Shown: positions 5,579 to 32,606, counted from the first letter of the stretch. The stretch is 32,606 nt of DNA from a virus (IMGVR_UViG_3300045988_160698); one strand, 5' to 3'. Translations and numbers: made by a program. The notes: generated by a model from the letters alone, not told the origin.

Positions 5579-5985
5579 TCTGCATCGTCGGGACTAGGGG
5601 AAGCGGTAAGACGACTGAGCTTTTAAAGTTCTCCGCTGATTCTGGCATCCCTATTGCCGTTCATGATTCAAACAGGGCAACCAGACTCCGCATGCTCATG
5701 GATGAGCTCGATATCGATGCGCCCGATCCGGTTGTCATCGGTAACGGCGTTTATGGAGGACGTCCATCCTGCTCTTTGGCGATGGAGCGCGGAAAAGACG
5801 GTTTGGCTCCGGTTCTTGTTGATGATCTGGAATCCTTTTTCGGCGCTAAGGGATTACGTGCCGATGTGGTGACCGTCAACGCCGATGCCCTGAATATCGA
5901 TTTCGAACTTGCCGCAAAAGCAAATCCAAGTCTGCTCAATTACCTCCGTTACCGTCGGGAAATTAGGAAAGGTGGTACGAAATGA
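5575..5985 (+). CDS. Small P-loop NTPase-like protein
   Basis: Walker A motif GTRGSGKTT at the N-terminus. AGGAGG RBS. ATGA overlap with the upstream gene. Confidence 0.6.
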   Translation: MICIVGTRGSGKTTELLKFSADSGIPIAVHDSNRATRLRMLMDELDIDAPDPVVIGNGVYGGRPSCSLAMERGKDGLAPVLVDDLESFFGAKGLRADVVTVNADALNIDFELAAKANPSLLNYLRYRREIRKGGTK

Positions 5986-6305
5986 GTGCCTACGTCAAGC
6001 GGGTCGGTGATCTGACTGAGCCTGTTGAGCTCAGCGCTGCGCAGGTTGCTGAGAAGATGGCCCGAACGGTCGATTCTGAGTTCGACCCAGTGATCAAGCC
6101 TTCGCATTATGCGGGACACACCGGCATCGATTGCAAGGCGGCGATGGAGTCGATGCTTGGAACAGAAGCGTACGTGTCCCATATGCAGGCATGCGTGCTT
6201 AAGTACATCTGGCGATGGCGTGACAAGAACGGCATCGAAGACCTCAAGAAGGCACGAGAGTGCATCGACAACATGATCCGTGCGATTGAAGGTGATGGGC
6301 AATGA
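5982..6305 (+). CDS. DUF3310-family phage protein
   Basis: KPSHY...GIDC...VLKYIWRWRDKNGIEDLKKA pattern, typical of DUF3310 as I remember it. Confidence 0.6.
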   Translation: MSAYVKRVGDLTEPVELSAAQVAEKMARTVDSEFDPVIKPSHYAGHTGIDCKAAMESMLGTEAYVSHMQACVLKYIWRWRDKNGIEDLKKARECIDNMIRAIEGDGQ

Positions 6306-6472
6306 CCACCGTGAAGCTCAACTTCGAGCTCGAGGATAAAAAGCCCAACGTCAAGACTGCTGATATCGAGGAAGCGGCCAAGCGGTTCACGACCTCGCTG
6401 CTCTTCCTGATTCGCGCGTTCGGCGTGAGCGGCGTGTCGGTGAAGATCGTGGGAGATGACGGCGATGAGTAA
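6302..6472 (+). CDS. Small hypothetical protein (56 aa); too short for the ORF track
   Basis: My own translation: MTTVKLNFELEDKKPNVKTADIEEAAKRFTTSLLFLIRAFGVSGVSVKIVGDDGDE. ATGA overlap with the upstream stop. Fills an otherwise empty 150-bp gap. Confidence 0.45.
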   Translation: MTTVKLNFELEDKKPNVKTADIEEAAKRFTTSLLFLIRAFGVSGVSVKIVGDDGDE

Positions 6473-6659
6473 GTACGGAAAGTATCACGTCCTGGATAAC
6501 CTCTGCACGGTCTCACAGGACATGAGCAACCGCATCCTGACGTGCGAGCGGCGCGGTCGCAGCAACGTGATGGTCAGTTACGAAGACATTGTCATGTGGT
6601 CTGACATCGTGTCTGACGCCATCGAGGTCATCAACGAGAAGGGCGAGAAAGATGATTGA
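6465..6659 (+). CDS. Hypothetical protein
   Basis: ORF 6456-6659. The ATG at 6465 overlaps the upstream stop and follows GGGAG. Confidence 0.5.
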   Translation: MSKYGKYHVLDNLCTVSQDMSNRILTCERRGRSNVMVSYEDIVMWSDIVSDAIEVINEKGEKDD

Positions 6660-6909
6660 GAGTCCGAGCCATGCCCTCAACCGCATCATTAAGAACTTTG
6701 GTGATGCGTTCACATCCGCTTTGCGTGGAAAGGGAAACTTCTTCTTTGAGGTTTCACGCGCGGTGAGGCGTGCGCATAGGGAATGGGTCAAGTTCGAGAA
6801 GCGTTGCGTGAAGTATAGCGGCCCTAAATGGCAGCGCCGGTATACAAAGGCGCTCAAGCGCTCGCGCAGGAACGTCGCCTATCTGAAGCGCACCGGCAGG
6901 TGCCGGTGA
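6652..6909 (+). CDS. Small, strongly basic protein translationally coupled to the tyrosine integrase (possible directionality factor or DNA-binding protein)
   Basis: Internal ATG at 6652 overlaps the upstream stop. 85 aa, rich in K and R (RRAHREWVKFEKR...KRSRRNVAYLKRTGRCR). Its stop TGA (6907-6909) overlaps the integrase ATG (6909-6911). Confidence 0.45.
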   Translation: MIESPSHALNRIIKNFGDAFTSALRGKGNFFFEVSRAVRRAHREWVKFEKRCVKYSGPKWQRRYTKALKRSRRNVAYLKRTGRCR

Positions 6910-8105
6910 TGGGCATCGAGGTCAAGCGCGATGCCAAAGGCGTTTGGTACGCGCAGCCCTATCTTGGTACGACTCCGGAGGGCAAGCAGATCAGGCCGCG
7001 CCGCAGCTTTCCCGAAGCCGCCACACGCGCCCAGGCGCAGGAATTGGCGAACCGCTGGCTCTCCGATATCTCCGCCGGCGGCAAGGTACAGAGCGTCGTT
7101 ATCGCCGATTTGCTGTACGCCTACATCGACGAGCGCCGCGCCAAGGGCGTGAGCCCTTACACGGTGAAGCGCTGGAAACTGTTCACCCGAAGCTATGTGG
7201 GCAGGTACCTCAAGGGCAAATCGGTGCTCGACCTAGGTGTGATGGAGTTCAACGACTTAGAGACGCGCCTGCTGCTGCCGAAAGATAAACGTGGTCAGGG
7301 TCTGTCGCGAAACACGGTGCGCAGCGTGCATTTCTTCCTTCGCGGTGCATACAACCACTGGATCAAGGCCGGTGTCTGCGAGACCAACCCGCTCTTCTAC
7401 GTCGAGCCGCCGCATGAGGACAAGCACGAGGCGGTTGCGCTCGACGAGTGGGATTACCCGGGTCTGGACGAAGCGATAACGACCGCGTTGCATCCAGACG
7501 AGCCCACGGAAAAGACCATGAGGGAAGCTGCGTACGCCTTCGCCGCCTGGCTCGCGCTGCACACCGGCATGCGCGTCGGCGAGGTGTGCGCGATACGCAG
7601 GAGGGACGTGTCGAAGCGCATGGGATACCTCCACGTGTGCGGCAAGATCGTCGAGCTTGACGGCGGCGGCGTCGAGCGCGTGGACGTTACCAAGGGCCGT
7701 AAGAGCCGCAACGTCTCCATGACCGAGCGTGAGTTTGAGACGATTTTCGGCTTTATCGAGCTTCAGGACGGTTTTACGGACGTGTTCACACCGAACATGC
7801 CGTTGGTGTCTTTTGACGGCTTCTTCATGCGTCCCACGACCGTCTCAAAGGCTTTCAGCCGCCTGCGCGACCGTTTGGGGCTGCCGAAGGGATGCACCTT
7901 CCACAGCCTTAGACATACGCACGCCACGTGGCTGCTTGCCAACGGCGCGAACCTCAAGGACATCGCCGAACGCTTCGGCCATGCGAACGAAGCCACGACG
8001 CTCAAGCTCTACGCCCACGCGATGCCCGGACGCGACCAGAGAGCCGCCGAGGTGTTCGACAAGTTCACCGACGAGCTTCGCGGGGGGACTGTAAACGATG
8101 TGTAA
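6909..8105 (+). CDS. Tyrosine recombinase, phage-integrase type, with an N-terminal arm-binding-like domain
   Basis: Catalytic signature LHTGMRVGE (Arg), HSLRHTHATWLL (His-x-x-Arg), GHANEATTLKLYAH (His and the nucleophile Tyr). The N-terminus IEVKRDAKGVWYAQPYLG...GKQIRPRRSF resembles integrase arm-type DNA-binding domains. Confidence 0.9.
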   Translation: MGIEVKRDAKGVWYAQPYLGTTPEGKQIRPRRSFPEAATRAQAQELANRWLSDISAGGKVQSVVIADLLYAYIDERRAKGVSPYTVKRWKLFTRSYVGRYLKGKSVLDLGVMEFNDLETRLLLPKDKRGQGLSRNTVRSVHFFLRGAYNHWIKAGVCETNPLFYVEPPHEDKHEAVALDEWDYPGLDEAITTALHPDEPTEKTMREAAYAFAAWLALHTGMRVGEVCAIRRRDVSKRMGYLHVCGKIVELDGGGVERVDVTKGRKSRNVSMTEREFETIFGFIELQDGFTDVFTPNMPLVSFDGFFMRPTTVSKAFSRLRDRLGLPKGCTFHSLRHTHATWLLANGANLKDIAERFGHANEATTLKLYAHAMPGRDQRAAEVFDKFTDELRGGTVNDV

Positions 8106-18531: not shown

Positions 18532-18609
18532 GGATAAAGCGACAGCGCACCGCAGTCGGCGCGCTGTTCTGTGTACTCACGGTTTATTGATAGTTGAATA
18601 GAGGTGACC

Positions 18610-21114
18610 ATGGCAGTTACTTACAAGGGGCTGACGATCAAATTCGGCGGCGATACGACGGAGCTGCAGGGCGCGCTCAAGAAGGTGCAGAGCACCGCCA
18701 AGGATACACAGGGCGCGCTGAAGGACATCAACCGCGCGCTGAAGCTTGACCCCGGCAATACCGAGCTTTTGACCGAGAAGGCCAAGCTGCTGAACCGCGC
18801 GTACGATGAGACCAAGACGAAGCTCGATGCCTATAAGTCGGCGCTCGCGATGCTTGAGGAAAAGCAGCGTAGCGGTGTAGCGCTCACGGAGCGCGAGCAG
18901 GCGCAGTATTCGAGCCTGAAGGCGCAGGTTGCCGTCTGCGAGAACCAGCTCGAGAGTTACGCCGATGACCTGAAGAGCGTTAGTCGGGAAGCGGAAGCAT
19001 CCAAGACCGGCCTGTACCAATTCGGACAGACGGTACAGGACAACAGCGACAAGCTGGCGAAGGCCGGCAAGGGGCTTGAGACCGCCGGCAAGACGATTAC
19101 CGGTGCCGTCGGTGGAGCTGCGACGGCGCTCGTGGGCCTGGCATCCAGTCAGGAAGAAAACATCGAGCAGACGCATCAGCTCGACGCCGCATGGAAAGAC
19201 GCCGGCGGTACGAGCGAGCAGGCCCGAAACTCCTATACGCTCTTCTACAAGCTGCTCGGTGAAGAGGACACGGCAACGGAAGCGGCGCAGAATCTCTCCC
19301 GACTGACCACGAACCAGCAGGAGCTGGACAAGTGGAACAACATCGCCGCAGGCTCCTTCTCGAAGTTCGGCGATGCTCTGCCACTCGAGAACCTCGTCGA
19401 AGCGTCCCAGGAGACGGCGCACACGGGAACCGTCACAGGCGGTTTGGCAGACGCACTTAACTGGGCTACCGCGAGCAATGAGCAGTGGAGCGCCGCGCTC
19501 TCCGGAAACCAGGCCGCGCAGCAGGCGTTCAACGACGCGATTGGGCAGGGCGCTACCAAGGAGGACGCGTTCAACGCGGCCCTTGCGGCCTGCGGCAGCG
19601 AGCAGGAGCGCTCTTCGCTTATCACGCAGACGCTTGACGGTCTCTATGGCGAGATCGGACAGACGTACCAGGACAACAACAAGACCATGCTCGACTCGCG
19701 CGAGCAGCAGGCCCAGTTCAACCAGAAGCTGACCGAAGCCGGTGAAGCCGCGCTGCCGGTCAAGGAAAAGGTCTTGGAGCTTGGCACCACTCTTCTCGAG
19801 AAGGTCACTCCGGCGCTTGAGAGCGTTTCCGACTGGTTTCAACGGCTGTCTCCGGAACAGCAAGACCTCGTGACCAACATCGCGCTCGGAACCCTGGCTT
19901 TTGGCGGCCTTGCGACCGGTGCCGGCAAGGTGTTGCAGGCGGGAAGCGAGATCGGCGGTACCATCAAAACCGTCTCCGAGACATTTGGTGGACTCAAGGG
20001 TGCTATCGGTGCCGTCGGTGGCGGCTGGACTTCCTTCACCGGTCTCATTGCGGCAAACCCGATTCTGCTCGGTGTGGCGGCTGTTGCCGCCGCCGTTGCC
20101 GGTCTTACGTGGTTCTTCACGCAGACTGAGACCGGCAAGCAGATGTGGTCTGATTTCACCGGATGGATCTCTGAGAAGTGGCAGGGAGTCCAAGACTTCT
20201 TTGCAGGGGTACCCGCTTTTTGGCAAGGAATCTGGGACGGGATAACCGGCAAGGCCGAGGAAGTCAAAAACGACCTCGGTGCGAAGTTCGATGGAATCAA
20301 GGAAGGCGCATCGAATGCCTGGGAAAACCTGAAGACAAATGCATCAGACGCTTGGGGGAATCTCCAGTCAGCGGCTTCGGAAAAGTTCGGGTCGATTAAG
20401 AACTCGATTCAAAATGACATGCAGACCGGCCTTGAAGTCGGGTCTTCGAGTTCGAAAGCACTTCAGGCAGCAATGAACGGTGATTGGTCGACCGCCAAGA
20501 CCGAAGCGGCCAACGCCTTCAACCTCATCAAGGACAACATAACGAACAAGCTGGGCAATGCCAAGACGAACGCCATCAACATTGCCGACACGATTGGCGG
20601 TAAGCTCGGCTTTCCCGGTCTCGGAACGAAGGTCAATGGTGTTTTCGAGGGTATCAAGAATGGCATAACCAACAAACTGAACAGCGCTTGGAACACGATT
20701 AGCTGGATACCCAATCAGATTTCCTCGGCGTTCTCCGGTATCCGTATCAGTCTGCCGCATATCAGCCTTCCCCATTTTTCTGTCTCGTGGAGGGATATCG
20801 GCGGCATCGTCGACCTGCCGAGCATCAGCGTGAGCTGGTATGCAAAGGGCGGCTATTTCGACCGCCCGAGCATCATCGGCGTCGGTGAGGCCGGCGGCGA
20901 GCACGTCACTCCGGATAGGAAGCTGCGCGAGAGCGTTGAGGATGCCGTTTCAAGGGCTTTCGACCGCTGGGGCGGCGGGGCAAATCCGGTCAGCGTCTCC
21001 GTAACTGTAAACGCCACGGTCAACGACAAGGTTGACGCCTACACGACGGGGCAGCAGATCGGCGCTGGCATCGCCAGCCGCCTGAAGCAGAGGGGAGTGA
21101 CCGTTGGAGCGTAA
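18610..21114 (+). CDS. Tape measure protein
   Basis: About 834 aa. Helical, Ala/Gln-rich N-terminal half. Central TM-like stretch (LIAANPILLGVAAVAAAVAGLTWFF). Position after the G/T chaperones. Confidence 0.9.
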   Translation: MAVTYKGLTIKFGGDTTELQGALKKVQSTAKDTQGALKDINRALKLDPGNTELLTEKAKLLNRAYDETKTKLDAYKSALAMLEEKQRSGVALTEREQAQYSSLKAQVAVCENQLESYADDLKSVSREAEASKTGLYQFGQTVQDNSDKLAKAGKGLETAGKTITGAVGGAATALVGLASSQEENIEQTHQLDAAWKDAGGTSEQARNSYTLFYKLLGEEDTATEAAQNLSRLTTNQQELDKWNNIAAGSFSKFGDALPLENLVEASQETAHTGTVTGGLADALNWATASNEQWSAALSGNQAAQQAFNDAIGQGATKEDAFNAALAACGSEQERSSLITQTLDGLYGEIGQTYQDNNKTMLDSREQQAQFNQKLTEAGEAALPVKEKVLELGTTLLEKVTPALESVSDWFQRLSPEQQDLVTNIALGTLAFGGLATGAGKVLQAGSEIGGTIKTVSETFGGLKGAIGAVGGGWTSFTGLIAANPILLGVAAVAAAVAGLTWFFTQTETGKQMWSDFTGWISEKWQGVQDFFAGVPAFWQGIWDGITGKAEEVKNDLGAKFDGIKEGASNAWENLKTNASDAWGNLQSAASEKFGSIKNSIQNDMQTGLEVGSSSSKALQAAMNGDWSTAKTEAANAFNLIKDNITNKLGNAKTNAINIADTIGGKLGFPGLGTKVNGVFEGIKNGITNKLNSAWNTISWIPNQISSAFSGIRISLPHISLPHFSVSWRDIGGIVDLPSISVSWYAKGGYFDRPSIIGVGEAGGEHVTPDRKLRESVEDAVSRAFDRWGGGANPVSVSVTVNATVNDKVDAYTTGQQIGAGIASRLKQRGVTVGA

Positions 21115-21838
21115 ACGCAAGCACAACCAGAGCGACAGCATCGTCTTCAACGGTCACGACCTGTCGAGCCTCGTCTTCTGCAAGATTCACCGCCCGATAA
21201 TGGCAAGCGTGAAGCCGACGTTCGAGGATGTGTCCGGAAGGCATGGCGAGCTGTTCAGGTCGGTGAAACGAGGGGGATACGATCTGACCGTCGACATGTG
21301 GCTGCGCACGGAACATCGTCGCGATATTGCCGATGCGCGGCACAAACTGGCGGCGATGCTCTGGACGGATGAGCCCGCTCCGCTGTACCTGCCGGATGAC
21401 CCAACGCGCTATCTCATGGCCATTGTCAGCGGCATCACAGATTTGGGTGAGATTACCGATGATTGCCCTGGCACGTCGGTGACATTCCATATAGGTGATC
21501 CGGACTATCACGGGCAGTGCCGCCGTATCGAGATGACCGGCTCCGCCGCCGTCTCCGTCGGCGGCACGCTTCCCGCGCATATTAAGGTGACGGCGAAGCC
21601 GTCTGCCGGAGGTGCCTGGAGGATAACCAACACCGGCACCGGCGAGTTCGTCGAGATTATCCAGCCGCTCACGGCTGACAGCACCATCAGGCTTGACTTC
21701 TCTACTGAGCACGCGACGGTCAACGGCTCGGTTGCCCAGCTCAACATCATGAGCGATTTCTTTGAGATTAATGACCGTGCGCACATCAAGATCTCTAGCG
21801 GCTCCGCGACGCTGGAATGGGAGGAAAGATGGCTTTAA
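21104..21838 (+). CDS. Distal tail protein (Dit, siphovirus tail family)
   Basis: 244 aa with a TTG start after GGGGAG. The pattern ...FNG.DLS....V..I.RP... and the position after the tape measure gene support the call. Confidence 0.75.
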   Translation: MERKRKHNQSDSIVFNGHDLSSLVFCKIHRPIMASVKPTFEDVSGRHGELFRSVKRGGYDLTVDMWLRTEHRRDIADARHKLAAMLWTDEPAPLYLPDDPTRYLMAIVSGITDLGEITDDCPGTSVTFHIGDPDYHGQCRRIEMTGSAAVSVGGTLPAHIKVTAKPSAGGAWRITNTGTGEFVEIIQPLTADSTIRLDFSTEHATVNGSVAQLNIMSDFFEINDRAHIKISSGSATLEWEERWL

Positions 21839-24588
21839 CAAAAAAGGTCAACTTCACCCGTTTCAGCCGTTTCGGCGCTAATCTCGGACGGCTCACCTAC
21901 ACCGCAGCGACCCATGAGGACGCTACGGACGGCACCGATGAGCTTAAGATCAGGTGCGACGAGGATTTGAGCAAGGGGGAGCGTCTTGTTTGGGTTGACC
22001 GACAAGGCGTTGTGCATGAGCACATAGTCGACGAAATCGAGCGGCTGCACGATGATAGCGGCAAGCCCTATACCAGCGTCACGTGCATCAACTCAATCAA
22101 CGAGACGTGGGATGACTATATCGAGGACAAGCGACCGTCCGGCAGCGTGGCTGTGGCGCTCGCTTCGATACTCGCTGGCACACGTTGGGAAGTCGGCAAC
22201 TGCGACCAGCCAGGCAGCGCTTCGCATACCTTCTATCACGTAAAAGTACGCGAGGGATTGAGCGATCTGCTCAAAACATGGGGAGGCGAGCTTGAAACCG
22301 TCATCGAGACGGACGGCGTGCAGGTCACACACCGATACGTGCGAGTGGTCGCGAAACGCGGAAACCAGCAAAGTCCCAAGCGCTTTACGTGGACTAAAGA
22401 CCTTATAAGCATCAAGCGCAAGACCGGCAGCGCGAATCCAAAGACGCGCGTTTACGGTTACGGCAAGGGCGTTGAGACCGATGGCGGCGGTTTTGGCCGG
22501 CGCTTGACTTTCGGCGATATAAACGGCGGCAAGAATTACGTCGAGGATGCCTCCGCGACCGAGATTTGGGGACATCCCGACGGCAACGGCGGCATCGCGC
22601 CCGCCGTGGATGTTTACATTAACGAGCAATGTGAGGACGCGGCACAACTTCTTGCCGAGACGAACGACTACCTCGAGCAAGCCAAAACGCCGACCGTCTC
22701 CTATGAAGCAAGCGTGATTGACCTGTTCGCTTTCGGGCGAGATTGGGAGAGCGTTGCCGTCGGCGATTGCGTGGCGATCATCGACAAGGGCTTCTCCGCT
22801 GCGGGAATCAGGCTCAAGGGTCGCGTCTCGAAGCTGGCCCGCGACCTGGTGACCGGCGATGCCACGGTGGTGTTCGGCAACTTAACCGATAATCTGGCCG
22901 ACATCTTTCAGTCCATGGCGCAGCAGCTCAAGAGCGGCAGTAACCAGCGGGCTAACTATGACGCGGCTGCCGGCACGTCCGTCTCGTGGCTCAACCAGCT
23001 CATGGCGGCGCTCAACAAGGCATTCAATGCCGTCGGCACCTACAAGGTCGAGACGTTCGAGCTCGGCGTGATTTACTCCAACGTGCCGCTGGATGCCGTG
23101 ACTGGCGTTCCGCTCAAGTCAACGTCCGGCATGTGGGCTGTCAATATCAACGGCATGGGCATCCGCCTTGCCGCAAATCTTACAAGCGACGGCCAATGGA
23201 ATTGGCGAACGTTTATAACCGGCGCACAGGTGAGCGCCGATTGCATCAACGCCGGAACGATGCGGGCAGACCGCATCCGCGCCGGCCTGCTCACCGACGA
23301 GGTGGGCGCGAACTATTGGGACTTGGAGACAGGCGAATTCCAGCTATCGCCCACTGCGAAGTACGGCGACGGTGGCTATACCGTCGATGGCGTTATCGAA
23401 GACCTGCACGGCGGAATGACGCAGAACAGAAAACACATCGAGGCCCTTGGGGAAGACTTCCAGACAAGGAATAAGGAACTTGACGAAACGATAAGCAGCC
23501 TCGACACCACGGTCAACGACATCGCTAAAGACGGCATCGTCACCGAGGCGGAGAAAGCTGCCGTAAATAAGATTCTCCAGACCGTGCAGAAAGATAAAGA
23601 AGACCTATCTGCACTACACAGATCGCTGTCGTCAAACAAAAATTTGCAGGTTCAGTTCAAGGCGCAAGTCCTAGAGCCGAGGTACAACAACGCGTTCGGC
23701 GAGGGCGGAGCGTTCGATGTCCTGATGTCAGCTATCTCGGATGTCACAAACTGCTCAACAGCCAAGAAACTGAATGCCGCCATGTCGGATTATAAGAGTG
23801 CCTATGAAAACTACTCATCCGCAGTAACGGTCTATGCGGCGGTAGCGCGACAGGCTACGAGCATGATTGCGAAAGAGGTGGCTAAGACCGATGCGGAGAA
23901 ACTTGTCGACAAGCTCGACGAGAGCCTCAAACAGCAAGAGATCTTCAATCGGCTCACCAACGACGGAGCAAACAAAGGCATCTACATGTCCAATGGCGAG
24001 CTGTACGTCAATGCGACATACCTCAAGAGCGGAACAATCGGCGACGGTCAGGGGAAGAACTACTGGAGTCTGACGAGCGGCTATTTCCAGACGACCTATG
24101 GCGTCATCGGCGGGCTATCAATCGATAACAACAAATTGTATAGATATAAGCTCACGCTCGATTCGAACACCTCTGGTCTCTACATAGGTACAGACGGTTT
24201 CAGCGTCGGTGGCGGCACCTGCTACACGGCAATGGCCAACGGATACCTATACGGCGGCACAGCTGAGGATATTACGGGCTACGTCGGATTCAACAACTAC
24301 AACACAAGTAGTCGTGTATATGGTGCACGATTGGCAGGCAAGGGGTGCATTTGCCTTCTGACTGACGACTGGATCGGAGTCGGGCCATACAAGGATCGCG
24401 GCGAGTACGTCGAGTGCAAGACTGGCAGAACCGGCAGCGTCACTCTCGTTGGAAATCTACAAAGCTCGTGGACGAATATGTCGCTGACAGGAGTTTATAA
24501 CGTCAGCAATCTCTGCCAAAACCTCTCGATGCACTGGACGAACTGGACTCTGAATTTCGATCACGGTCTCATGGTCACGGCACTTTAG
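21829..24588 (+). CDS. Tail-associated lysin / tail tip protein (Tal, prophage-tail endopeptidase-type N-terminus) with a coiled-coil and a distal domain
   Basis: About 919 aa. ATG at 21829 follows GGGAGG. N-terminal domain typical of Tal proteins. Central coiled-coil (NKELDETISSLDTTVNDIAKDG...). Position after Dit. Confidence 0.7.
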   Translation: MALTKKVNFTRFSRFGANLGRLTYTAATHEDATDGTDELKIRCDEDLSKGERLVWVDRQGVVHEHIVDEIERLHDDSGKPYTSVTCINSINETWDDYIEDKRPSGSVAVALASILAGTRWEVGNCDQPGSASHTFYHVKVREGLSDLLKTWGGELETVIETDGVQVTHRYVRVVAKRGNQQSPKRFTWTKDLISIKRKTGSANPKTRVYGYGKGVETDGGGFGRRLTFGDINGGKNYVEDASATEIWGHPDGNGGIAPAVDVYINEQCEDAAQLLAETNDYLEQAKTPTVSYEASVIDLFAFGRDWESVAVGDCVAIIDKGFSAAGIRLKGRVSKLARDLVTGDATVVFGNLTDNLADIFQSMAQQLKSGSNQRANYDAAAGTSVSWLNQLMAALNKAFNAVGTYKVETFELGVIYSNVPLDAVTGVPLKSTSGMWAVNINGMGIRLAANLTSDGQWNWRTFITGAQVSADCINAGTMRADRIRAGLLTDEVGANYWDLETGEFQLSPTAKYGDGGYTVDGVIEDLHGGMTQNRKHIEALGEDFQTRNKELDETISSLDTTVNDIAKDGIVTEAEKAAVNKILQTVQKDKEDLSALHRSLSSNKNLQVQFKAQVLEPRYNNAFGEGGAFDVLMSAISDVTNCSTAKKLNAAMSDYKSAYENYSSAVTVYAAVARQATSMIAKEVAKTDAEKLVDKLDESLKQQEIFNRLTNDGANKGIYMSNGELYVNATYLKSGTIGDGQGKNYWSLTSGYFQTTYGVIGGLSIDNNKLYRYKLTLDSNTSGLYIGTDGFSVGGGTCYTAMANGYLYGGTAEDITGYVGFNNYNTSSRVYGARLAGKGCICLLTDDWIGVGPYKDRGEYVECKTGRTGSVTLVGNLQSSWTNMSLTGVYNVSNLCQNLSMHWTNWTLNFDHGLMVTAL

Positions 24589-24787: not shown

Positions 24788-25250
24788 AGGCATCGAATCA
24801 CTCGCCAGCGCGCTCGGCGCGACCGTAACCGAGCAAGAGCAGAGTATCAATGTCAAGTATGTGGCTCCAGACGAGTACACAAATAGCCAGATGGAGCAGA
24901 TGCTGGTATCTCTTCAGCCGCTGCTCGACCGCCGCGACATCGTGGGTTATGCGGCCGCTCGGAATACGCGAGTTCTGCGCTCAGAGTGCATGGAATATCT
25001 CAAGCGCCGCGATGAGCTGATCTCGAAATACGGTGAACCAGAGATTGGCGAGGACGGCTCGCCGACCGGTAACTCTCGAATCAAAATCGGGTCAGATGGC
25101 TATAAATCGTTCTGCTCAGAGATCGAGCTTTACGCGAACATCAAGCACCGTCCCAACCTTTTCAAGATTTCCTACGGCGAAGTAATCGGCAAGATGTCCG
25201 GCAACGAGATTCTTGATTGCGAATGGATGCTAATCGACGGTGATGCGTAA
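24780..25250 (+). CDS. Hypothetical tail-module protein (possibly DUF1617-like)
   Basis: Internal ATG at 24780 overlaps the upstream stop. The pattern ...AAARNTRVL..E...YLKRRDELISKYGE..EDG... recalls DUF1617. Low confidence. Confidence 0.45.
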   Translation: MDKGIESLASALGATVTEQEQSINVKYVAPDEYTNSQMEQMLVSLQPLLDRRDIVGYAAARNTRVLRSECMEYLKRRDELISKYGEPEIGEDGSPTGNSRIKIGSDGYKSFCSEIELYANIKHRPNLFKISYGEVIGKMSGNEILDCEWMLIDGDA

Positions 25251-26053
25251 TGAACACTCAGAATATCGAGCTTGATATCGATAAGCGCGGATGCGGAAAC
25301 AACTGCATCCGCATCGCCCAGGGCGAAAACGGCGGCACCACCATCAAGGCGCTCGTCTTCGACAACGGCGAGGAGTTCGCACTTGCCGGCTATACGGCTT
25401 ACCTGGTTGCACGTCTGCCCGATCGTATCCACTACTACAAGGGAACCGCCACGGTTTCCGGCAACACAGTAACGCACGTCTGTGAGGAATCGAAGTTGGC
25501 GTGCGTGCCAGGCTATACCGATGAAGCCTATTTCGAATTCACAAAGGGCTCGCAGACGGTGCAGACAGAGCGCTTCGCGCTTGACATCATGCGCGACGCC
25601 CGCGAGGGAAATACTCCGGCGAAGTCATGGGACAACGCAATAGAGGCGCTTGAGAAGCGCGCCGAAACTGCCGTCACCAAGGGAGAGCAGGCCGTCACCG
25701 ATGCGGGCAAGGCGCTGAATAACGCCAACGCTGCGGTCAACATCTGCAAGAGCGCCACGGACGCGGCCAACACCGCGACGGGCAAGGCGAACGCCGCGAC
25801 AAAGAGCGCCACAGATGCCGCTTCTGCCGCAAATACAGCCAAGGCGAACGCCGACACCGCAACCAATGCGGCGAACGCCGCGACAAACGCGGCTAACGCA
25901 TCCAAGGACAGCGCGGATCGGGCGGCAGCGGACGCGCGCAAAGCGGCTGAGGAAGCTCGTGGCTCCGTCAGCAGTGACATGAAGATCTATTTCAAGCGCG
26001 TGACCGATGCGCAGGGCAACTCGTGGCCTGTGTTGGTTGACATGACTATTTAG
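25250..26053 (+). CDS. Baseplate upper protein-like (BppU N-terminal-like) with an Ala/Asn/Thr-rich coiled-coil stalk
   Basis: The N-terminus (IELDIDKRG...IRIAQGENGGTTIKALVFDNGE.F.L.GYTA) resembles BppU_N. Residues about 145-235 are low-complexity (A/N/T/K) heptad-like sequence. Confidence 0.55.
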   Translation: MNTQNIELDIDKRGCGNNCIRIAQGENGGTTIKALVFDNGEEFALAGYTAYLVARLPDRIHYYKGTATVSGNTVTHVCEESKLACVPGYTDEAYFEFTKGSQTVQTERFALDIMRDAREGNTPAKSWDNAIEALEKRAETAVTKGEQAVTDAGKALNNANAAVNICKSATDAANTATGKANAATKSATDAASAANTAKANADTATNAANAATNAANASKDSADRAAADARKAAEEARGSVSSDMKIYFKRVTDAQGNSWPVLVDMTI

Positions 26054-26064
26054 GAGGTCAAAGG

Positions 26065-27624
26065 ATGGATTTTACTTTTCCGCGAAACGAGACGTTTGAG
26101 CGCATCGCCGTCGCGCTTGAAGGCATGGGTGCATCGGCGGTGCCGAAGTTCAGCGAGGAAACTGGGCGCTACGACAATGCATCCATCGACGCATGGCTCG
26201 CTCGTATGCGAGACGGGAAGAACTACGGCGTTAGCATCCCGAAGGGCAGCTCAACCGCCTGCACCAAGACAGGCGCGAACGCCGGCATCGCCAACCCCAA
26301 GCCCGGCGTCATCGGGCGCGCGGCGATCGACCCGTACGTCAACCAAGGCGCGTTCTTCTTCGTGGAAGTCAACGGCGGCGTGGATGCCGACGGCACTCCG
26401 TACGTAACGGCAATCGACGGCGATGGCCGCTTCTCGCGTCTCGACGATACATGGGTCTTGACGCCGGTGCTTTACACTCTTGAGAGCGAGACCGATGATG
26501 CGGTTACCCTCACCGTTTCGGACACACGCCAGCCGGGCATGAAGCGGCAGCCCGCCGCGCTGCTGCCGAACGGTGCGCAGCGTCCTTATATGTTGTATGC
26601 AAAGTATGCACTGTCGGTCGACGCCGACGGCAAGCCGCGAAGCGTGAGCGGCGCTGCGGTCAAGACACGCAGCGTGAGCCACGATAGCGGCATCGGCCTG
26701 ATGAAGACCGCGAGCACCGGCGATTCACTCAAGGTCGCAGCCGATGACTGGTACGTCAAGACGATGTTCCTGCTCAAGTATGCGACGAAGAACAGCCAGA
26801 GTATCTTTACCGGATGCACCGGATACGACATCACCGCCACTCCGACACTCGCTGAAAGCAACACCACGAGGGTCGTTATCGCCAAGGACAAGGCCGATCA
26901 GATTCTAATCGGCTCCGCGATGATGTTCGGCACACATACTGGCACGAGTACCGACCGCGGCTACGATTACAACTGCGATATCTTCGATGGAGCGAGGGTC
27001 ACCAAGAAGGTTGCCGTCGACGCATCCAATGTGGCAGTCTATTTCGATGTCGCTAAGCCCTTCTCGACCGCTACGACCTATCAGCTCGCAACCGCACCGT
27101 GGAACACCGGCTCTTGCGACATGGTTGAGGGCGACGGATCGCCGACGAGCTGCACGGACGGAAAGCAGCCCTTTGTCGTTCAGGGTATCGAGCTCGGGCT
27201 TGGAATGCTTGAGGTTCTTGGAAACGTCCTCATCCAGTACACAGGTACTGGCGCGATCGTTTACGTGAACCCGGACACTAAGAACGAGAAGGCCGGCAGC
27301 TCACCGGACAGCGCGCTGTCTGCCGGGGCTTTTCCCGGGCAAGCAGCTGAGGGATGGAATTACGCTCTTTACTGCAAGACGGTCAACGGCCTGATGATTC
27401 AGCAGGGAACGGGTGCGTCGACTTCTGTTGGCATCTGCGACGGCAACTACAAGGTCGCGGACACTACAGTCGGCTGGAGAGAGTGGCCTTCTCTCGGCAC
27501 TTTGGGGTACGGGGCTCTCGGCGGTCTTTGGTTCGTCCCCGGCTACAACGGCGCCGGCGACGCCGGGTGGCACATCGGCTCGCGCCGCTCTGCCAATGGT
27601 CGCTCTAGGGGTGAAGCGGCGTAA
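26065..27624 (+). CDS. Receptor-binding tail fibre protein; DGR target gene carrying the variable region at its C-terminus
   Basis: 519 aa with a TAGGAGG RBS. Last structural gene of the tail module. Its last ~45 codons contain the VR, which is the repeat of the TR downstream. The motif GGLW......G...G....W.IG.R resembles the C-type-lectin-like ends of known DGR targets. Confidence 0.85.
   Translation: MDFTFPRNETFERIAVALEGMGASAVPKFSEETGRYDNASIDAWLARMRDGKNYGVSIPKGSSTACTKTGANAGIANPKPGVIGRAAIDPYVNQGAFFFVEVNGGVDADGTPYVTAIDGDGRFSRLDDTWVLTPVLYTLESETDDAVTLTVSDTRQPGMKRQPAALLPNGAQRPYMLYAKYALSVDADGKPRSVSGAAVKTRSVSHDSGIGLMKTASTGDSLKVAADDWYVKTMFLLKYATKNSQSIFTGCTGYDITATPTLAESNTTRVVIAKDKADQILIGSAMMFGTHTGTSTDRGYDYNCDIFDGARVTKKVAVDASNVAVYFDVAKPFSTATTYQLATAPWNTGSCDMVEGDGSPTSCTDGKQPFVVQGIELGLGMLEVLGNVLIQYTGTGAIVYVNPDTKNEKAGSSPDSALSAGAFPGQAAEGWNYALYCKTVNGLMIQQGTGASTSVGICDGNYKVADTTVGWREWPSLGTLGYGALGGLWFVPGYNGAGDAGWHIGSRRSANGRSRGEAA
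27484..27588 (+). repeat. DGR variable region (VR)
   Basis: Aligns with 27694-27798 at a constant offset of 210 bp. Over the 103-bp core (27484-27586) there are 16 mismatches. Of these, 14 fall at positions where the TR has A. Confidence 0.9.
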
Positions 27625-27646
27625 GCCGCGAGGGGACTTGTCCCCT
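27616..27646. promoter_or_regulatory. Two tandem GC-rich tetraloop hairpins just downstream of VR (candidate DGR target-recognition structure)
   Basis: GCGGC-gtaa-GCCGC (27616-27629; the target stop codon lies in the loop). AGGGGA-cttg-TCCCCT (27631-27646). Confidence 0.5.
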
Positions 27647-27693
27647 TATGAAAACAAGCAGGGATTCGCGGCGCGCGGGCTGTCATGTTCTGT

Positions 27694-27798
27694 TGGCTTT
27701 CTCTCGGCAACTTGAGGAACAGGGCTAACGGCGGTCTTTGGTACGTCAACGGCAACAACGGCACCGGCAACGCCAGGTGGAACATCGGCTCGCGCCTA
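27694..27798 (+). repeat. DGR template repeat (TR)
   Basis: Invariant-copy candidate. It contains 22 adenines, all at codon positions 1 or 2 when read in the VR frame (8 AAC codons). It lies between the target gene and the RT gene. The 70-aa track ORF 27685-27897 is an artefact of this repeat. Confidence 0.9.
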
Positions 27799-27977
27799 TC
27801 TGGACAAAACAAGCAATCATTCCAGCTACACATTTACTTCCGCCGCGACTACCCGCCGCCGCTGGTGGCGAGCGGGCATTTGGCCTGGGTCAACTGACTG
27901 AAATGGCTTTAAGACCACTGGGTTAGTAGCTGATAGGTGAAACCTCAGACAGTATCCAGAGAGAAACGGTCTGACAA

Positions 27978-29156
27978 TTGAAGACATATTGCAGAGGGCT
28001 TCGCATAGACGGAGCCCTCATTTATAGAGCTTACGGTAATTGGCTTAAGGCACCGGCAGGCAAGAAGAACGCCTGGCGCGTGCCGATTGAATACGGCAGC
28101 GTGGCTTCGCTTCTGGCTGAGATCGAGGGCGAGATTTACCATCGCTCGCTGACATTTCAACCGATCAGACGTCATTGGTACCGTGAGCCAACCAACGGAA
28201 AACTACGGCTCATCGGCGTGGAGAGCGTCAAGCAGCAGGTCTGTGATTACGTCGCAATTGAAGCTCTTCATGACCTGTTGCACGCTAAGGTCGGATTCTG
28301 GCAGGTTTCGAGCGTCAAGGGCAAGGGGCAGACTATGGCGGCGAATGCCGTGAGCCGCTGGTCTCAGGAGGGCGGCTATTTCGTCCACCTTGACATTCGC
28401 AAATGCTATCCGTCAATCAAGACAGACGTGGTGATGGGTGTCCTTCGCCATTACGTGCGGAGTCCCGATGTCATGTATATATGCAGGACGCTGCTCTCCA
28501 CATACGATGACGGGCTTGAGATCGGCAGCTACTTCAGTCTCCGCATGGCGCAGCTCGTTCTGTCCTTTGGCTACCACTCCATAGAGGGCATGCATAAGGT
28601 GCGGCGAGGCAACAGCGTCGCAATGGTGTCGCATCAGCTTTGGTACGCAGATGACATCTATCTATTCAGCCAGGACAAGCGCAACTTGCGCAGCGCCGCG
28701 AGGGAATTGCAAAGGTTCCTCCTTAAGCGCTACGGACTGCATCTCAAGGCATGGAAAATCTGCCGCATATCGAACGATGAGCCGGTGGATGTCGTCGGGT
28801 TCACAGTGCGACCAAACCGCGTGACGCTGCGACCCTCGCTGTTCCTGCGCGCGTGCCGGGCATATCGGAAATACAGGCGATTGCCCACTCTCAAGCGCGC
28901 GAGGCGCGTGACGAGCTACAACGGCTGGTTCAAGCACTCAGATTCGAGCAGCCTGGTTAGGGACAACGGATTTGACCAGGTATTCAAAAAGGCAAGGCGG
29001 CACGTGAGTGCTGCGGGAAGGAAGAAACATGAGTTATCAGACAGTATCGGCAACGCCGCTCGCACCTGTAATGATCGAAGCGCGTGCCGACGGCCTCACG
29101 TCCGACGTGTGGCTGCGCAAGAACATCCAGAAGGACGTTGCAGACAACGGCATTGA
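27978..29156 (+). CDS. Reverse transcriptase (DGR-type, divergent)
   Basis: RT motifs KLRLIGVESVKQQVCDYVAIEAL, SSVKGKGQTMAA, LDIRKCYPSI, LEIGSYFSLRMAQ and the catalytic LWYADDIYLF. The only available start is TTG at 27978, directly after an in-frame TGA. The 3' end overlaps the next gene by 128 nt. Confidence 0.88.
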   Translation: MKTYCRGLRIDGALIYRAYGNWLKAPAGKKNAWRVPIEYGSVASLLAEIEGEIYHRSLTFQPIRRHWYREPTNGKLRLIGVESVKQQVCDYVAIEALHDLLHAKVGFWQVSSVKGKGQTMAANAVSRWSQEGGYFVHLDIRKCYPSIKTDVVMGVLRHYVRSPDVMYICRTLLSTYDDGLEIGSYFSLRMAQLVLSFGYHSIEGMHKVRRGNSVAMVSHQLWYADDIYLFSQDKRNLRSAARELQRFLLKRYGLHLKAWKICRISNDEPVDVVGFTVRPNRVTLRPSLFLRACRAYRKYRRLPTLKRARRVTSYNGWFKHSDSSSLVRDNGFDQVFKKARRHVSAAGRKKHELSDSIGNAARTCNDRSACRRPHVRRVAAQEHPEGRCRQRH

Positions 29157-29400
29157 CTCTGGTAAAGCCATCGAGTTCTACCGAGCCGATGAGATTCAAT
29201 TCGTACAGGCGGGAGTCCCGACTCTCGACGGCATCACCGCCGCATTCGACGAGCTCTGGGCAGCGCACGAGGATGACGGTCTCAGCGACACCGAGCGCAT
29301 CGACAAGATCATCGAGTCGCTTTCCGCGACGAGGGCGGCACTCGAAGACACCAATGCCGCGCTGCTGGAGATCGGTGACATCGTTGGAGGCGAAGAGTGA
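29029..29400 (+). CDS. Hypothetical acidic protein (XkdW-like position)
   Basis: ATG at 29029 follows GGAAGGAAG. 123 aa and acidic. Precedes the XkdX-like ORF and the holin. Confidence 0.55.
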   Translation: MSYQTVSATPLAPVMIEARADGLTSDVWLRKNIQKDVADNGIDSGKAIEFYRADEIQFVQAGVPTLDGITAAFDELWAAHEDDGLSDTERIDKIIESLSATRAALEDTNAALLEIGDIVGGEE

Positions 29401-29525
29401 TGGCGAAAATCTACTTCGAAGCCGTCAAAGACGAAAGGCGCACGCTTGAGAGCGTACCGAAGCGCTGGCGCGCTGCCGTGGCGGAACTGCTGAAAGCATT
29501 CAAAGACACTGACCAGGAGGAATAA
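29400..29525 (+). CDS. XkdX-like small protein (41 aa); too short for the ORF track
   Basis: My own translation: MAKIYFEAVKDERRTLESVPKRWRAAVAELLKAFKDTDQEE. Its ATG overlaps the upstream TGA. The pattern (...RTLE.VP...R..V..LL) and the position before the holin match XkdX-type proteins. Confidence 0.5.
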   Translation: MAKIYFEAVKDERRTLESVPKRWRAAVAELLKAFKDTDQEE

Positions 29526-29529
29526 TCAA

Positions 29530-29949
29530 ATGGATCTCGCACCTATCTACACGTTCACCGAGCAGCAGGTATGGGCCATCGCTGGCGCATTCATCCTCAT
29601 GCTCTTCGACATGGTGAGCGGCATCATTCAGGCAGTCATGAACCGTGAGTTCCGCAGCTCCACGATGCGCACCGGACTCGGCCACAAGGCGGTGCTGGCG
29701 CTTATCATCTTGCTCGCAATCTGTATCGAAATCCTCAGCGCCCACGTTGCCGGCCTTGGCTTCGGCGGCGTGACAATCTACGTGGTGTGCGTCGCAACCA
29801 TCATCATGGAGGTCGCGAGCATCATGGAGAACCTCTGCAAGGCTTATCCCGAGCTTGCAGACCTTCCGGTCATGAAGATCTTCGAGCATGCGGACGCGGA
29901 TGCGGTCAACCCTAAGACGGTCGCAGATGAAGTGTACAAGCGCGGCTAG
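29530..29949 (+). CDS. Holin (phage_holin_4_1 / toxin-secretion holin-like)
   Basis: 139 aa with three hydrophobic helices (WAIAGAFILMLFDMVSGIIQA, AVLALIILLAICIEIL, GVTIYVVCVATIIMEVASI). AGGAGG RBS. Sits directly upstream of the lysins. Confidence 0.8.
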   Translation: MDLAPIYTFTEQQVWAIAGAFILMLFDMVSGIIQAVMNREFRSSTMRTGLGHKAVLALIILLAICIEILSAHVAGLGFGGVTIYVVCVATIIMEVASIMENLCKAYPELADLPVMKIFEHADADAVNPKTVADEVYKRG

Positions 29950-30631
29950 GCTCCGGCTCGCGGCAGCGCTGCTTCTTGGCATTGCAGTCGGCTTCAGCAC
30001 TTGGATCGGCATCGCAGCTCAGCATGTGCAGTCAGACAGTATAAGCAGTGTAAAGACCTACGAGCGCGGATACAGCGACGGAGTTCAGGACGCGCAGCCA
30101 ATTTACGACAAGAGTGATTCTAAAAAGAGCGGCTATATGCCGCTCTTTTTGCAAAAAGACCCGCAATGGTCATCGACCGCCTATAGCGACGAGACCATCG
30201 GCACCTACGGGTGCGGCCTCACGTGTGCCGCCATGGCGCTGAGCTACGAGCAGGGCGCGCCGGTGACACCGGATGCCCTCGCAAACATCGTAGGCGATTC
30301 GTGCCTTACAGACCGAGTAAACGACATGGCGAAGTTCACGCAGTTCACCCACGACAGATACGGATATGACCGAGTTGACACCTTCTGGGGCACGGACAGT
30401 GCCCTCGATTATGTCGACGACGGATGGATCGTATTCGCCGGAGTTAGTGGTCAGCTGGGAGACCGTGAATACGGCAGCCACGTCGTGATGATCTGGCGTG
30501 CGAACGATGACGGGACGTATGCGCTACGTGACCCGGACGATGGAGCCAACTCAATCAAAACATGGACAAGGGAAGAGCTCGAAGCCGTCTACTTCGGCTC
30601 ATTTAACGCTATTAGAGGTGATGCGCGATGA
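29927..30631 (+). CDS. Membrane-anchored C39-like (papain-fold) cysteine peptidase, putative second endolysin
   Basis: N-terminal signal-anchor (RLRLAAALLLGIAVGFSTWIGIAA). The pattern PLFLQKDPQWS...GTYGCGLTCAAMALSY...GSHVVMIW resembles Peptidase_C39_2. The start may be 29888 or 29927; both lie inside the holin 3' end. Confidence 0.6.
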   Translation: MKCTSAARLRLAAALLLGIAVGFSTWIGIAAQHVQSDSISSVKTYERGYSDGVQDAQPIYDKSDSKKSGYMPLFLQKDPQWSSTAYSDETIGTYGCGLTCAAMALSYEQGAPVTPDALANIVGDSCLTDRVNDMAKFTQFTHDRYGYDRVDTFWGTDSALDYVDDGWIVFAGVSGQLGDREYGSHVVMIWRANDDGTYALRDPDDGANSIKTWTREELEAVYFGSFNAIRGDAR

Positions 30632-31656
30632 CGATGAAGGGCATCGACATTTCTGATTATCAGCGAGGTCTCGACCTCACTAAAATCGATTACGATTTCG
30701 TATTCTGCAAGGCGACCGAGGGCATCGATAAGGTTTATTCGACTTGCGACCCGTTTATCCAGACGGCGATCAGCCAGAAGAAACTCTATGGCTTCTACCA
30801 TTTCCTTGACCAGTCCGACCCGGTAAAGCAGGCCGAGTTCTTCTACGCCAACTGCAAGAACTACTTCGGCAAAGGTATCCCGATGCTCGACTACGAAGCA
30901 TACGGTCGCATCGGAACCGATAAGGCGAAGCTGTTCCTGGATAAGATCTACGAGCTCACCGGCGTTCGCTGCATCGTCTATATGAGTCGAAACGTCACCA
31001 CAGAGGAAGACTGGTCGCAGATTGCAAAGAACCACGCGCTCTGGGTCGCTCAATACGCTGGCAACAACGACACTGGATACCAAGATTCCCCTTGGCTTCC
31101 TGATGGTGGATTCGGTGCCTGGAACAGCTGCGTCATCCATCAGTACTCTTCTCACGGACGTTTGAACGGGTATGACAAATACCTCGATCTCGACATCGCA
31201 TACATGGACAAGCAGGCATGGTTTAAGTATGTTCATGGCGAGAGGGTTGAGACTGGTGGCGCGGCTGAGAATTGTCCTGATGGCTCTACTGCAAATCTCG
31301 CGGCAGCGGTCATGCGCGGGGAGTACGGCAATGGGGACGAGCGTCGCAAGCGCCTAGGCTCTCGACATGATGAGGTGCAGGCGCTAATCAACCGCGTCAG
31401 CTCATCCAGTGTCGACGATCTCGCCAAAGACGTGCTCAACGGAGTCTTCGGCAACGGCGATACGCGACGTGCCGTTCTTGGCTCGCGTTACGATGAGGTG
31501 CAGGCACGTGTCAACGCGCGCTCTTCAAGTGTTGACATCGACGCGCTCGCTCGCGCCGTGATTCGAGGTGAGTACGGTGACGGCAACGAGCGCTGCACCA
31601 AGCTCGGAGCAAACTTCGATGCGGTTCAAAAACGAGTAAACGAACTTCTTAAATAG
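30628..31656 (+). CDS. Endolysin: GH25 muramidase with three C-terminal CW_7 (Cpl-7-type) cell-wall-binding repeats
   Basis: GH25 N-terminus KGIDISDYQ...FVFCKATEG...YGFYHF. Three repeats of about 40 aa: V.RGEYGNGDERRKRLGSRHDEVQALINRV, VLNGVFGNGDTRRAVLGSRYDEVQARVNAR and VIRGEYGDGNERCTKLGANFDAVQKRVNEL. Confidence 0.9.
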   Translation: MTMKGIDISDYQRGLDLTKIDYDFVFCKATEGIDKVYSTCDPFIQTAISQKKLYGFYHFLDQSDPVKQAEFFYANCKNYFGKGIPMLDYEAYGRIGTDKAKLFLDKIYELTGVRCIVYMSRNVTTEEDWSQIAKNHALWVAQYAGNNDTGYQDSPWLPDGGFGAWNSCVIHQYSSHGRLNGYDKYLDLDIAYMDKQAWFKYVHGERVETGGAAENCPDGSTANLAAAVMRGEYGNGDERRKRLGSRHDEVQALINRVSSSSVDDLAKDVLNGVFGNGDTRRAVLGSRYDEVQARVNARSSSVDIDALARAVIRGEYGDGNERCTKLGANFDAVQKRVNELLK

Positions 31657-32551: not shown

Positions 32552-32606
32552 GATTTCAACTGAGTTGACATATATAGTGTTCGCAGTAAGTAGCTTCTGC
32601 TCCACC
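32552..32606. repeat. Terminal 55-bp direct repeat, copy 2; identical to 1-55
   Basis: Same 55-mer as at the window start. Confidence 0.95.

Follow-up and report, generated by a model that had tools for sequence, protein, structure and literature searches.

When a segment near the end of a phage gene recurs a short distance downstream, next to a gene for a reverse transcriptase (RT), the question arises whether these parts form a single element that rewrites the gene or are neighbors by chance. This question is raised by positions 26065–29156 of the viral genome IMGVR_UViG_3300045988_160698, whose whole stretch of 32,606 nt was analyzed and is called the window here, all coordinates being positions in it. 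An earlier note, made from the sequence alone, had read the locus as a diversity-generating retroelement (DGR) that diversifies the C-terminus of a tail-fiber protein in the manner of Bordetella phage BPP-1. We consider it very probable, at roughly 0.93, that the element is a DGR, composed of a target gene, a template region (TR), and an RT gene without any accessory gene (Architecture A), in the complete 32.5-kb genome of a temperate siphovirus of gut Coriobacteriia. The adenine bias at the center of this reading was found in the window and also in 30 related loci. The target gene, the repeats, the RT gene, and the DNA and RNA elements described around them are all on the plus strand.

Repeat pair and its variation among relatives

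The variable region (VR) occupies 27484–27586 and the non-coding TR occupies 27694–27796, and a scripted comparison gave a gap-free alignment of these two 103-nt segments, 210 nt apart, with weaker homology continuing to 27592 on the VR side and to 27802 on the TR side. The pair was recovered independently by a repeat search. A recount reproduced every figure given for the pair in the earlier note, including the total of 16 mismatches, the 14 that fall on TR adenines (27710, 27715, 27718, 27721, 27727, 27728, 27743, 27748, 27749, 27754, 27763, 27769, 27775, and 27781), where the VR holds C, G, or T, and the 8 out of 22 TR adenines that are unchanged in the VR. The mismatch rate was 14/22 at the A positions of the TR versus 2/81 at its non-A positions (Fisher one-sided p = 4.7e-10). 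The bias was also directional, the adenines being present in the downstream copy and the VR containing just 8 A.

The target gene (26065–27624) is an open reading frame (ORF) of 519 codons, in which 27484 is the first base of codon 474 and the VR covers codons 474–507. The VR had been described as the last codons of this ORF; its location near the C-terminus was confirmed, but 12 codons and the stop codon lie 3' of it. Read in the target frame, the TR adenines are at codon position 1 in 13 cases, at position 2 in 9, and at position 3 in none, and are distributed over 14 codons (8 AAC, 3 AGG, TAC, ACC, and ATC). An enumeration of all A-to-N outcomes yielded zero stop codons and ~4e12 possible peptides, in agreement with the expectation that stop codons are excluded because the TR adenines occupy codon positions 1 and 2 only.

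To place the window among its relatives, a search with the RT was used, which retrieved 37 viral contigs and 29 loci in bacterial genomes; the counts for TR and VR given here cover the 30 loci with an intact repeat pair. In these loci, the VR-TR spacing was 209–233 nt and the TR was ~180 nt upstream of the RT, and the geometry of target, TR, and RT was constant in more than 50 loci. Mismatches between TR and VR were at TR adenines in 346 out of 368 cases. In the VR, the mean column entropy was 1.49 bits opposite TR adenines and 0.29 bits elsewhere; the adenine columns of the TR itself were at 0.10 bits. These values bear directly on the possibility that the pair is an ordinary partial gene duplication which has diverged normally and to which the nearby RT is unrelated. 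Tail-fiber genes often hold duplicated or recombined C-terminal segments, and in the downstream copy the frame stays open as an ORF of 70 aa (27685–27897), as might be seen after such a duplication. The divergence is, however, directional and base-specific, both in the window and in the family; the non-coding copy is conserved while the coding copy varies, which is the reverse of the decay of a neutral pseudo-copy; and the target-TR-RT geometry is fixed. A mere duplication is effectively refuted by these findings.

The exact target protein of the window is present in public collections as a "hypothetical protein" and is a member of a cluster of 72 proteins at 90% identity. Among 19 near-identical target proteins, all 14 adenine codons were variable, with an entropy of 2.13 bits, versus 0.08 bits for the other VR codons and 0.06 bits for the remaining 485 residues, and the VR peptide was unique in each of the 19. 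At the nucleotide level, the TR was identical in the window and in two relatives, L001 and L005, despite their differing VRs; between the window and L005, the TR differed at 0/103 positions and the flanks were ~96% identical, while the VR differed at 14 positions, 12 of which are in adenine columns. It had been suggested that reads from the source population be used to compare the two repeats; the comparison made here, between near-identical genomes and proteins in place of reads from one population, gave the anticipated result of an invariant TR and a VR that is hypervariable exactly at the TR-adenine codons. The VRs are unique amid near-identical genomes with the same TRs and, therefore, the turnover of the VR is faster than ordinary divergence, which indicates that diversification is probably continuing in the lineage.

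Two further observations concern the repeats. The change at 27488 makes codon 475 CCT, compared with CTT in the TR, corresponding to L475P. The same substitution is present in P0424 and P0434, two other members of the 90% cluster, and it is therefore probably an inherited point substitution rather than an RT error private to the window genome. Separately, in L018 (5715–5817), L019 (5715–5817), L030 (5719–5821), and L046 (~1665), as well as in protein P0241, the target runs straight into a single VR/TR hybrid. In those four independent relatives, the hybrid has a mutagenized-looking 5' part and intact AAC codons in its 3' part, the interval of ~210 nt is missing, and the target ORF reads on into the spacer. 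Such hybrids reflect either recurrent VR/TR recombination, by which the DGR is destroyed, or a collapse of the assembly owing to heterogeneous VRs.

Class of the reverse transcriptase

The RT gene (27978–29156) encodes 392 aa from a TTG start, which was accepted because homologs start with M/L-KSYCKGL. The ORF had been assigned to an RT by its motifs, above all by a YADD box, and this assignment was borne out by a Pfam RVT_1 domain, with YADD at residues 223–226, R77, and the signature IGSYFSL at residues 182–188. Its best match among solved structures was 8ub7_A, a reverse transcriptase of 328 aa, with E = 2.5e-7 for the single sequence; with a family profile built from 26 sequences, the match to 8ub7_A reached E = 9.8e-18 and extended to the end of the thumb, whereas group II-type RTs were at 1.8e-8 or worse. 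We identified 8ub7_A as the Bordetella phage enzyme bRT because the numbering of the chain (R74, D138, I181, Q187, and D215/216) fits the published bRT residues. The enzyme of BPP-1 is, hence, the closest solved homolog of the window RT. R74 and I181 of bRT, which promote adenine mutagenesis (PMC7826257), are conserved in the window RT as R77 and I182.

The RT signature of DGRs is [I/V/L]GxxxSQ, compared with QGxxxSP in group II and retroviral RTs (PMC7826257). In IGSYFSL, the discriminating first position holds I, not Q, and both the G and the S are present, but the motif ends in L, which is neither Q nor P; the corresponding motifs differ in BPP-1, where bRT has IGSLTSQ and YMDD. A tblastn search against annotated phages yielded RT relatives that were all below 32% identity and that included the RTs of the DGR-bearing phages FP_Epona, LBR48, and ANMV-1 and of a Bordetella phage. 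By profile search, tblastn relatives, and the first residue of the signature, the window RT is placed with the DGR enzyme bRT and not with group II intron, retron, or defense RTs, the opposite outcome having been named in the earlier note as one that would refute its reading.

It may still be asked whether an RT of one of those other classes (group II intron, retron, or Abi/DRT defense) stands beside the repeats by chance. The catalytic box YADD occurs in many group II RTs, and the best NCBIfam matches were group II RT/maturase and retron St85, with weak PADLOC matches to RT_VI and generic RT models. These matches are, however, far under the family cutoffs (50.7 versus 300 bits for group II RT/maturase and 27 versus 235 bits for retron St85), and those to the PADLOC defense-RT models were scattered over many unrelated RT models, the best reaching 44.8 bits. 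Against them stand the profile search, in which bRT led all other solved relatives by nine orders of magnitude, and a signature that starts with I, not Q. Neither group II intron domains nor any other Rfam family was found at gathering score anywhere in the window, and the RT carries neither a maturase nor an endonuclease extension. Furthermore, the genes neighboring the RT are tail and lysis genes. Two distant RT matches served as controls: L037, at 22% RT identity, has the motif QGGNLSP and 140-bit matches to group II RNA domains and is a group II intron, whereas L036, at 25% RT identity, is a canonical DGR with IGYYTSQ, YMDD, and an adenine-biased repeat pair of its own. An RT of another class is, in our view, hardly credible.

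Two observations on these RT genes may be added. In L037, the most distant RT match, the intron (5456–5740 and 6001–6633) is located beside a tRNA cluster in a viral contig of 169 kb. In the window, the RT is longer than in most relatives (392 aa compared with 361–366 aa), and its 3' end (29008–29156) shares 128 nt with the next gene, whose ATG is at 29029; the corresponding overlap in relatives is ~30 nt. The longer ORF has apparently resulted from the loss of the usual stop codon.

Structured RNA around the template and departures from BPP-1

The sequence between the VR and the RT holds a series of elements that are retained in the family. At its 3' end, the VR has a GC-rich block, GGCTCGCGCC, that does not vary in any of the loci. 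GCTCTG comes next in the VR and TATCTG after the same block in the TR, the 6 nt after the GC block differing at 2 positions. The resulting homology boundary (27577–27592) resembles an initiation of mutagenic homing (IMH) site and, by analogy, the GC block may act as one. A GC-rich hairpin, GCGGC-GTAA-GCCGC (27616–27629), is located 30 nt 3' of the VR end and has the target stop codon in its loop. Its stem covaries in the family (CCCGC/GCGGG, GGCCGC/GCGGCC, CGGCGGC/GCCGCCG, and UUUAGGGCGGC/GCCGCCCUAAA), which makes it a candidate target-recognition hairpin, again by analogy, as BPP-1, too, has a GC-rich boundary at the 3' end of its homology and, after it, a GC-rich hairpin. A second hairpin, GGGGAC-TT-GTCCCC followed by TT (27632–27645), has a stem that covaries as well (GGGGGCGCAAGCCCCC, GGGGCAGAGCCCC, and GAGGGGAATCAATTCCCCTC) and looks like a terminator for the target gene; a simple terminator scan did not call it, and the sole terminator-like call of that scan overlaps a strand of the duplex described next.

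Only 69 nt separate the target stop codon from the TR, and within them is a conserved block, GGGAUUCG, together with the 5' strand of a duplex (27661–27673 in all). This strand, UCGCGGCG (27666–27673), pairs with CGCCGCGA (27841–27848) on the other side of the TR and so brackets it with 8 pairs, for which 98.4% of cells were paired in the family alignment. Compensatory double changes were present in 3/8 pairs (in L031/32, L034, and L065) and in none of the slid controls, and 0/500 shuffles reached the observed value.

The spacer of 181 nt between TR and RT (27797–27977) was found to contain six helices supported by covariation. A closing helix (27800–27804/27955–27959) joins the bases just 3' of the TR to those beside the RT start; it is followed by the 3' strand of the bracketing duplex, by P1 (27852–27876) and P2 (27888–27899), by an outer helix (27906–27908/27951–27953), and by P3 (27918–27948) with its inner stem at 27929–27938. 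Over 31 pairs and 40 distinct sequences, 94.4% of cells were paired compared with 29–40% in slid controls, both sides changed in 13/31 pairs, and the covariation score was 0.328 compared with at most 0.071 in controls; the counts for P1 are to be read with the caveat that this hairpin was partly misaligned by MAFFT and under-called by RNAalifold, so that its helix was set by hand. As a partner for CUGG at 27800–27803, the local CCAG at 27822–27825 was also considered and was rejected, being missing from the divergent L031, L034, and L065, whereas the distal partner at 27955–27959 is universal and its fifth pair covaries.

With regard to known RNAs, cryo-electron microscopy of the bRT-Avd/RNA complex has revealed a duplex of the sequence upstream of the TR with the downstream spacer and several spacer stem-loops (10.1101/2023.10.23.563531). 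The bracketing duplex of the window resembles the "cPRT Stop" of that complex, and the spacer is structured in both; the window spacer is, however, longer than that of BPP-1, with its elements in a different order. Among Rfam families, the RT-10 motif of BPP-1 was not among the matches of the window spacer up to E = 10, and weak matches to RT-19 (23.1 bits, gathering 78.3) and RT-18 (15.4 bits, gathering 41.3) were obtained instead. Like the window spacer, RT-18 (RF03021) and RT-19 (RF03073) immediately precede an RT gene (Weinberg et al, 2017; PMC5737381). The 3' half of the spacer shares the order of RT-18, with a hairpin, a GAAAU linker, an outer helix, a UAGUA internal loop, an inner hairpin, GAAA, and a purine-rich tail. 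The scores being far under the gathering thresholds, the spacer is at best a divergent relative of these families. A bona fide RT-18 was found in the canonical DGR L036, where the RNA (5667–5743), at 46.7 bits versus a gathering score of 41.3, lies between the TR and an RT that begins at 6001; the repeat pair of that locus (5243–5322/5505–5584) has 7/8 mismatches at adenines. It has been speculated in print that other "RT-n" motifs, too, are spacer RNAs of DGRs, and the finding of RT-18 in L036 supports this idea.

Based on these elements and by analogy with BPP-1, we propose the following mechanism. A transcript of ~27660–27980 would fold such that the duplex 27666–27673/27841–27848 brackets the TR and the spacer offers the RT, whose gene comes next, a platform of several helices. 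With priming in cis, the RT would copy the TR into complementary DNA (cDNA), misincorporating specifically opposite the 22 template adenines, and the cDNA would replace the homologous VR (27484–27586) in the tail-fiber gene. The GC-rich boundary that both copies share at their 3' ends would guide the targeting, together with the hairpin 3' of the VR. Primer-template positioning, the definition of the cDNA end point, and target recognition may be the respective roles of the elements. With adenines confined to the first and second positions of 14 codons, up to ~4e12 stop-free variants of the fiber tip could arise, and these would presumably alter receptor specificity.

Such a mechanism is modeled on BPP-1, the prototype with the order mtd-avd-TR-brt, which shares with the window a C-terminal VR in a tail-fiber gene, a non-coding TR that directly precedes the RT gene, divergence from TR to VR that is specific to adenines, template codons rich in AAC, and even the number of 22 TR adenines (PMC7826257). 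The likeness to BPP-1 drawn in the earlier note, hence, holds in that the two work alike in outline, but not in that Avd is not detectable and the RT signature ends in L instead of Q. Several observations weigh against the DGR reading as set out here and are best considered together. A Pfam scan of 27 window ORFs found no Avd-type family, and the signature-final L was present in 108 out of 108 scorable family members. No promoter for the TR transcript was predicted in a scan. Two mismatches between TR and VR are not at adenines (T27698/C27488 and C27711/T27501). In two AlphaFold2 models of the target, one of the full length and one of the C-terminal domain, for which the alignment was made as diverse as possible, the VR segment had a predicted local distance difference test score (pLDDT) below 50. 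Finally, activity in the window genome itself is deduced from the comparison between genomes and can be called only probable.

This last point concerns the possibility that the DGR of the window is a fossil, that is, a copy now inactive, whose VR differences were inherited from past events. Its two non-adenine mismatches would fit such a history, as would the lengthened RT ORF with its missing normal stop and its 128-nt overlap with the next gene. The RT ORF is nevertheless intact, with every residue that is invariant in the family, including YADD, R77, and I182, and the TR, the bracketing duplex, and all spacer helices are intact as well. Moreover, the identical TRs with different VRs at ~96% flank identity, together with unique VRs in 19/19 of the closest proteins, are not what a fossil would be expected to leave. 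We therefore judge an inactive copy to be quite unlikely and retain the reading of a DGR that is apparently active.

As for Avd, BPP-1 strictly requires it, and none was detected in the window; therefore, the mechanism is not identical in detail. Avd is poorly conserved, so a cryptic homolog is possible. The only basic ORFs of ~130–140 aa in the genome, 2524–2922 and 10695–11123, were tried as candidates and rejected, showing no similarity to Avd or any PDB chain and being at least 17 kb from the TR. The ORF 29029–29400, considered as an accessory factor, was likewise set aside; it is acidic (isoelectric point 4.1), has no family match, and moves together with the lysis module, and the most divergent DGR loci lack it.

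In its layout, the cassette is not of the BPP-1 type (Architecture B, avd-TR-RT), since an avd gene, present in BPP-1, was not detected in the complete genome of the window; its target-TR-RT order is that of Architecture A, in which a TR-RT core likewise stands next to an upstream target and accessory genes are lacking (Wu et al, 2018; PMC5758913). Architecture A accounted for 75/372 DGRs in that study, whose authors searched for avd elsewhere in such genomes without success, proposed Avd-independent homing, and argued that, at least in the avd-less Lineage 3, a mode of homing has evolved that dispenses with Avd (Wu et al, 2018; PMC5758913). A part of that lineage (3A) is restricted to Bacteroides (PMC5758913), whereas the family of the window is found in Coriobacteriia. 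It is conceivable, though we offer this only tentatively and with more doubt than conviction, that retrohoming in the window is independent of Avd, with the duplex and the six-helix spacer replacing the Avd scaffold, with an RT whose C-terminal tail is basic and in which L stands where bRT has Q187, a residue that contacts the template, and perhaps with the diversified residues on an all-beta scaffold other than the C-type lectin fold. The departures from BPP-1, namely the absence of a detectable Avd, the RT signature, the spacer RNA, and the VR domain, are all within the variation catalogued for DGRs. Avd-less cassettes and uncharacterized tail-fiber VR domains have already been published, and DGRs are well documented in gut phages.

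Target protein, phage, and host

The target had been taken for a tail-fiber protein, and this assignment as a protein of tail-fiber or receptor-binding type is supported by synteny, by fusions to BppU_N, and by structural matches to tail fibers of gut phages. The gene is preceded by a tail module comprising the tape measure (18604–21114), Dit (21104–21838), Tal (21817–24588), and, directly upstream of the target and outside the DGR, a BppU_N baseplate protein (25250–26053, plus strand; Pfam PF10651, E = 1.9e-7). In some relatives (P0212, P0214–P0216, P0226, and P0233), BppU_N is fused to the target in a single polypeptide of 780–910 aa, which physically ties the target to the baseplate. The target matches phrog_17147 over its full length and phrog_5302, a tail protein family. 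The full-length AlphaFold2 model (predicted template modeling score 0.65) matched "tail collar fiber" and "tail fiber" proteins of gut phages in BFVD, including crAss-like phages, with E values down to 5e-27, and the confident core of the models was all-beta.

The VR-bearing domain (residues 341–519) forms a family of 291 clusters at 50% identity, which is almost always C-terminal and is located at the end of proteins of 200 to 2000 aa. No Pfam family was matched by the target or by this domain; sequence and profile searches of the target against Pfam, NCBIfam, and PDB gave only chance matches to beta-trefoil designs and a Fab chain, and a Foldseek search of both models against PDB returned nothing significant. 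The target is, hence, without detectable similarity to any solved structure, and so to Mtd, the target of BPP-1. These searches and the models, with the VR segment below pLDDT 50, did not show the C-type lectin-like fold for which the earlier note had suggested a test. It can be likened, by description only, to the targets of Roux et al (2021; PMC8144416), earlier termed "Ig1/Ig2" by Wu et al, which are of phage tail-fiber type, come from the human gut, and bear the VR in a C-terminal domain without a Pfam or CDD motif.

These properties leave room for the possibility that the DGR is active but that the diversified protein does not bind a host receptor, having instead, for example, a role in mucus or glycan binding or another virion function. 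The target is without Pfam annotation, and its VR domain is found in proteins of such different lengths, which would be compatible with a role of that kind. The tail module, however, has this gene at its distal end, where it follows immediately on the BppU_N protein to which it is fused in some relatives; its structural neighbors are annotated as tail or tail-collar fibers; and viral DGR targets are mostly tail proteins (Roux et al, 2021; PMC8144416). A role other than receptor binding is thus considered unlikely, and diversification of a receptor-binding protein is preferred as the probable function of the DGR. As a separate observation on the tail module, the BppU-like gene contains, at 25745–25908, a periodic repeat of 21 nt in at least 5 copies, coding for Ala/Asn/Thr-rich heptads (…ATNAANAATNAANA…), and the heptad repeat probably represents a coiled-coil stalk.

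The two ends of the window, 1–55 and 32552–32606, were identical over 55 nt by direct comparison and, therefore, the window represents a complete genome of 32,551 bp, either circularly closed or assembled with terminal redundancy. The genome has a GC content of 57% and encodes a serine recombinase, a CI-like repressor, a single-stranded DNA-binding protein, a dUTPase, an HNH protein, a siphovirus tail module, a holin, and two lysis enzymes. The phage is a temperate siphovirus of gut Coriobacteriia, mainly Collinsella. The earlier note had predicted a GC-rich Gram-positive host, and the relatives of the locus proved to be prophages in Collinsella and in metagenome-assembled genomes of other Coriobacteriia, such as Senegalimassilia, two of them being embedded in contigs of ~2.45 Mb; Slackia and Gordonibacter genomes also carry annotated close homologs of the target protein. 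The host, a Gram-positive actinobacterium, is thus unlike that of BPP-1. Among annotated phage genomes, a megablast search with 25000–29500 gave no match, and a close relative of the window RT was found in 0 of the 50,697 genomes searched.

Other features of these genomes were also observed. The large serine recombinase (81–1502, minus strand) adjoins the CI-like repressor, and a separate protein of the tyrosine-integrase family is encoded in the early region (6828–8105, plus strand). The lysis enzymes are adjacent, the first (29888–30631) being Peptidase_C39_2-like with an N-terminal hydrophobic segment and the second (30628–31656) being a GH25 muramidase with three CW_7 repeats. Two relatives, L061 (CAVJGP010000043.1) and L063 (CAVKOL010000025.1), carry a prophage DGR of the Coriobacteriia type in bins named Alistipes onderdonkii and Bacteroidaceae, for which contamination of the binning is more likely than a true host jump.

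DGRs of the Avd-less class are poorly understood, and the locus provides one that is compact, complete, and apparently active; its more than 60 natural relatives jointly define an RNA architecture around the TR that is supported by covariation. The locus makes testable how roughly a quarter of DGRs carry out reverse transcription and homing without Avd. The VR domain constitutes a large family of tail-fiber C-termini that tolerates hypervariation, and its structure would show whether the C-type lectin fold is a universal scaffold of DGRs. Collinsella and other Coriobacteriia are abundant in the human gut, and their phages, to which this element belongs, have apparently been little studied.

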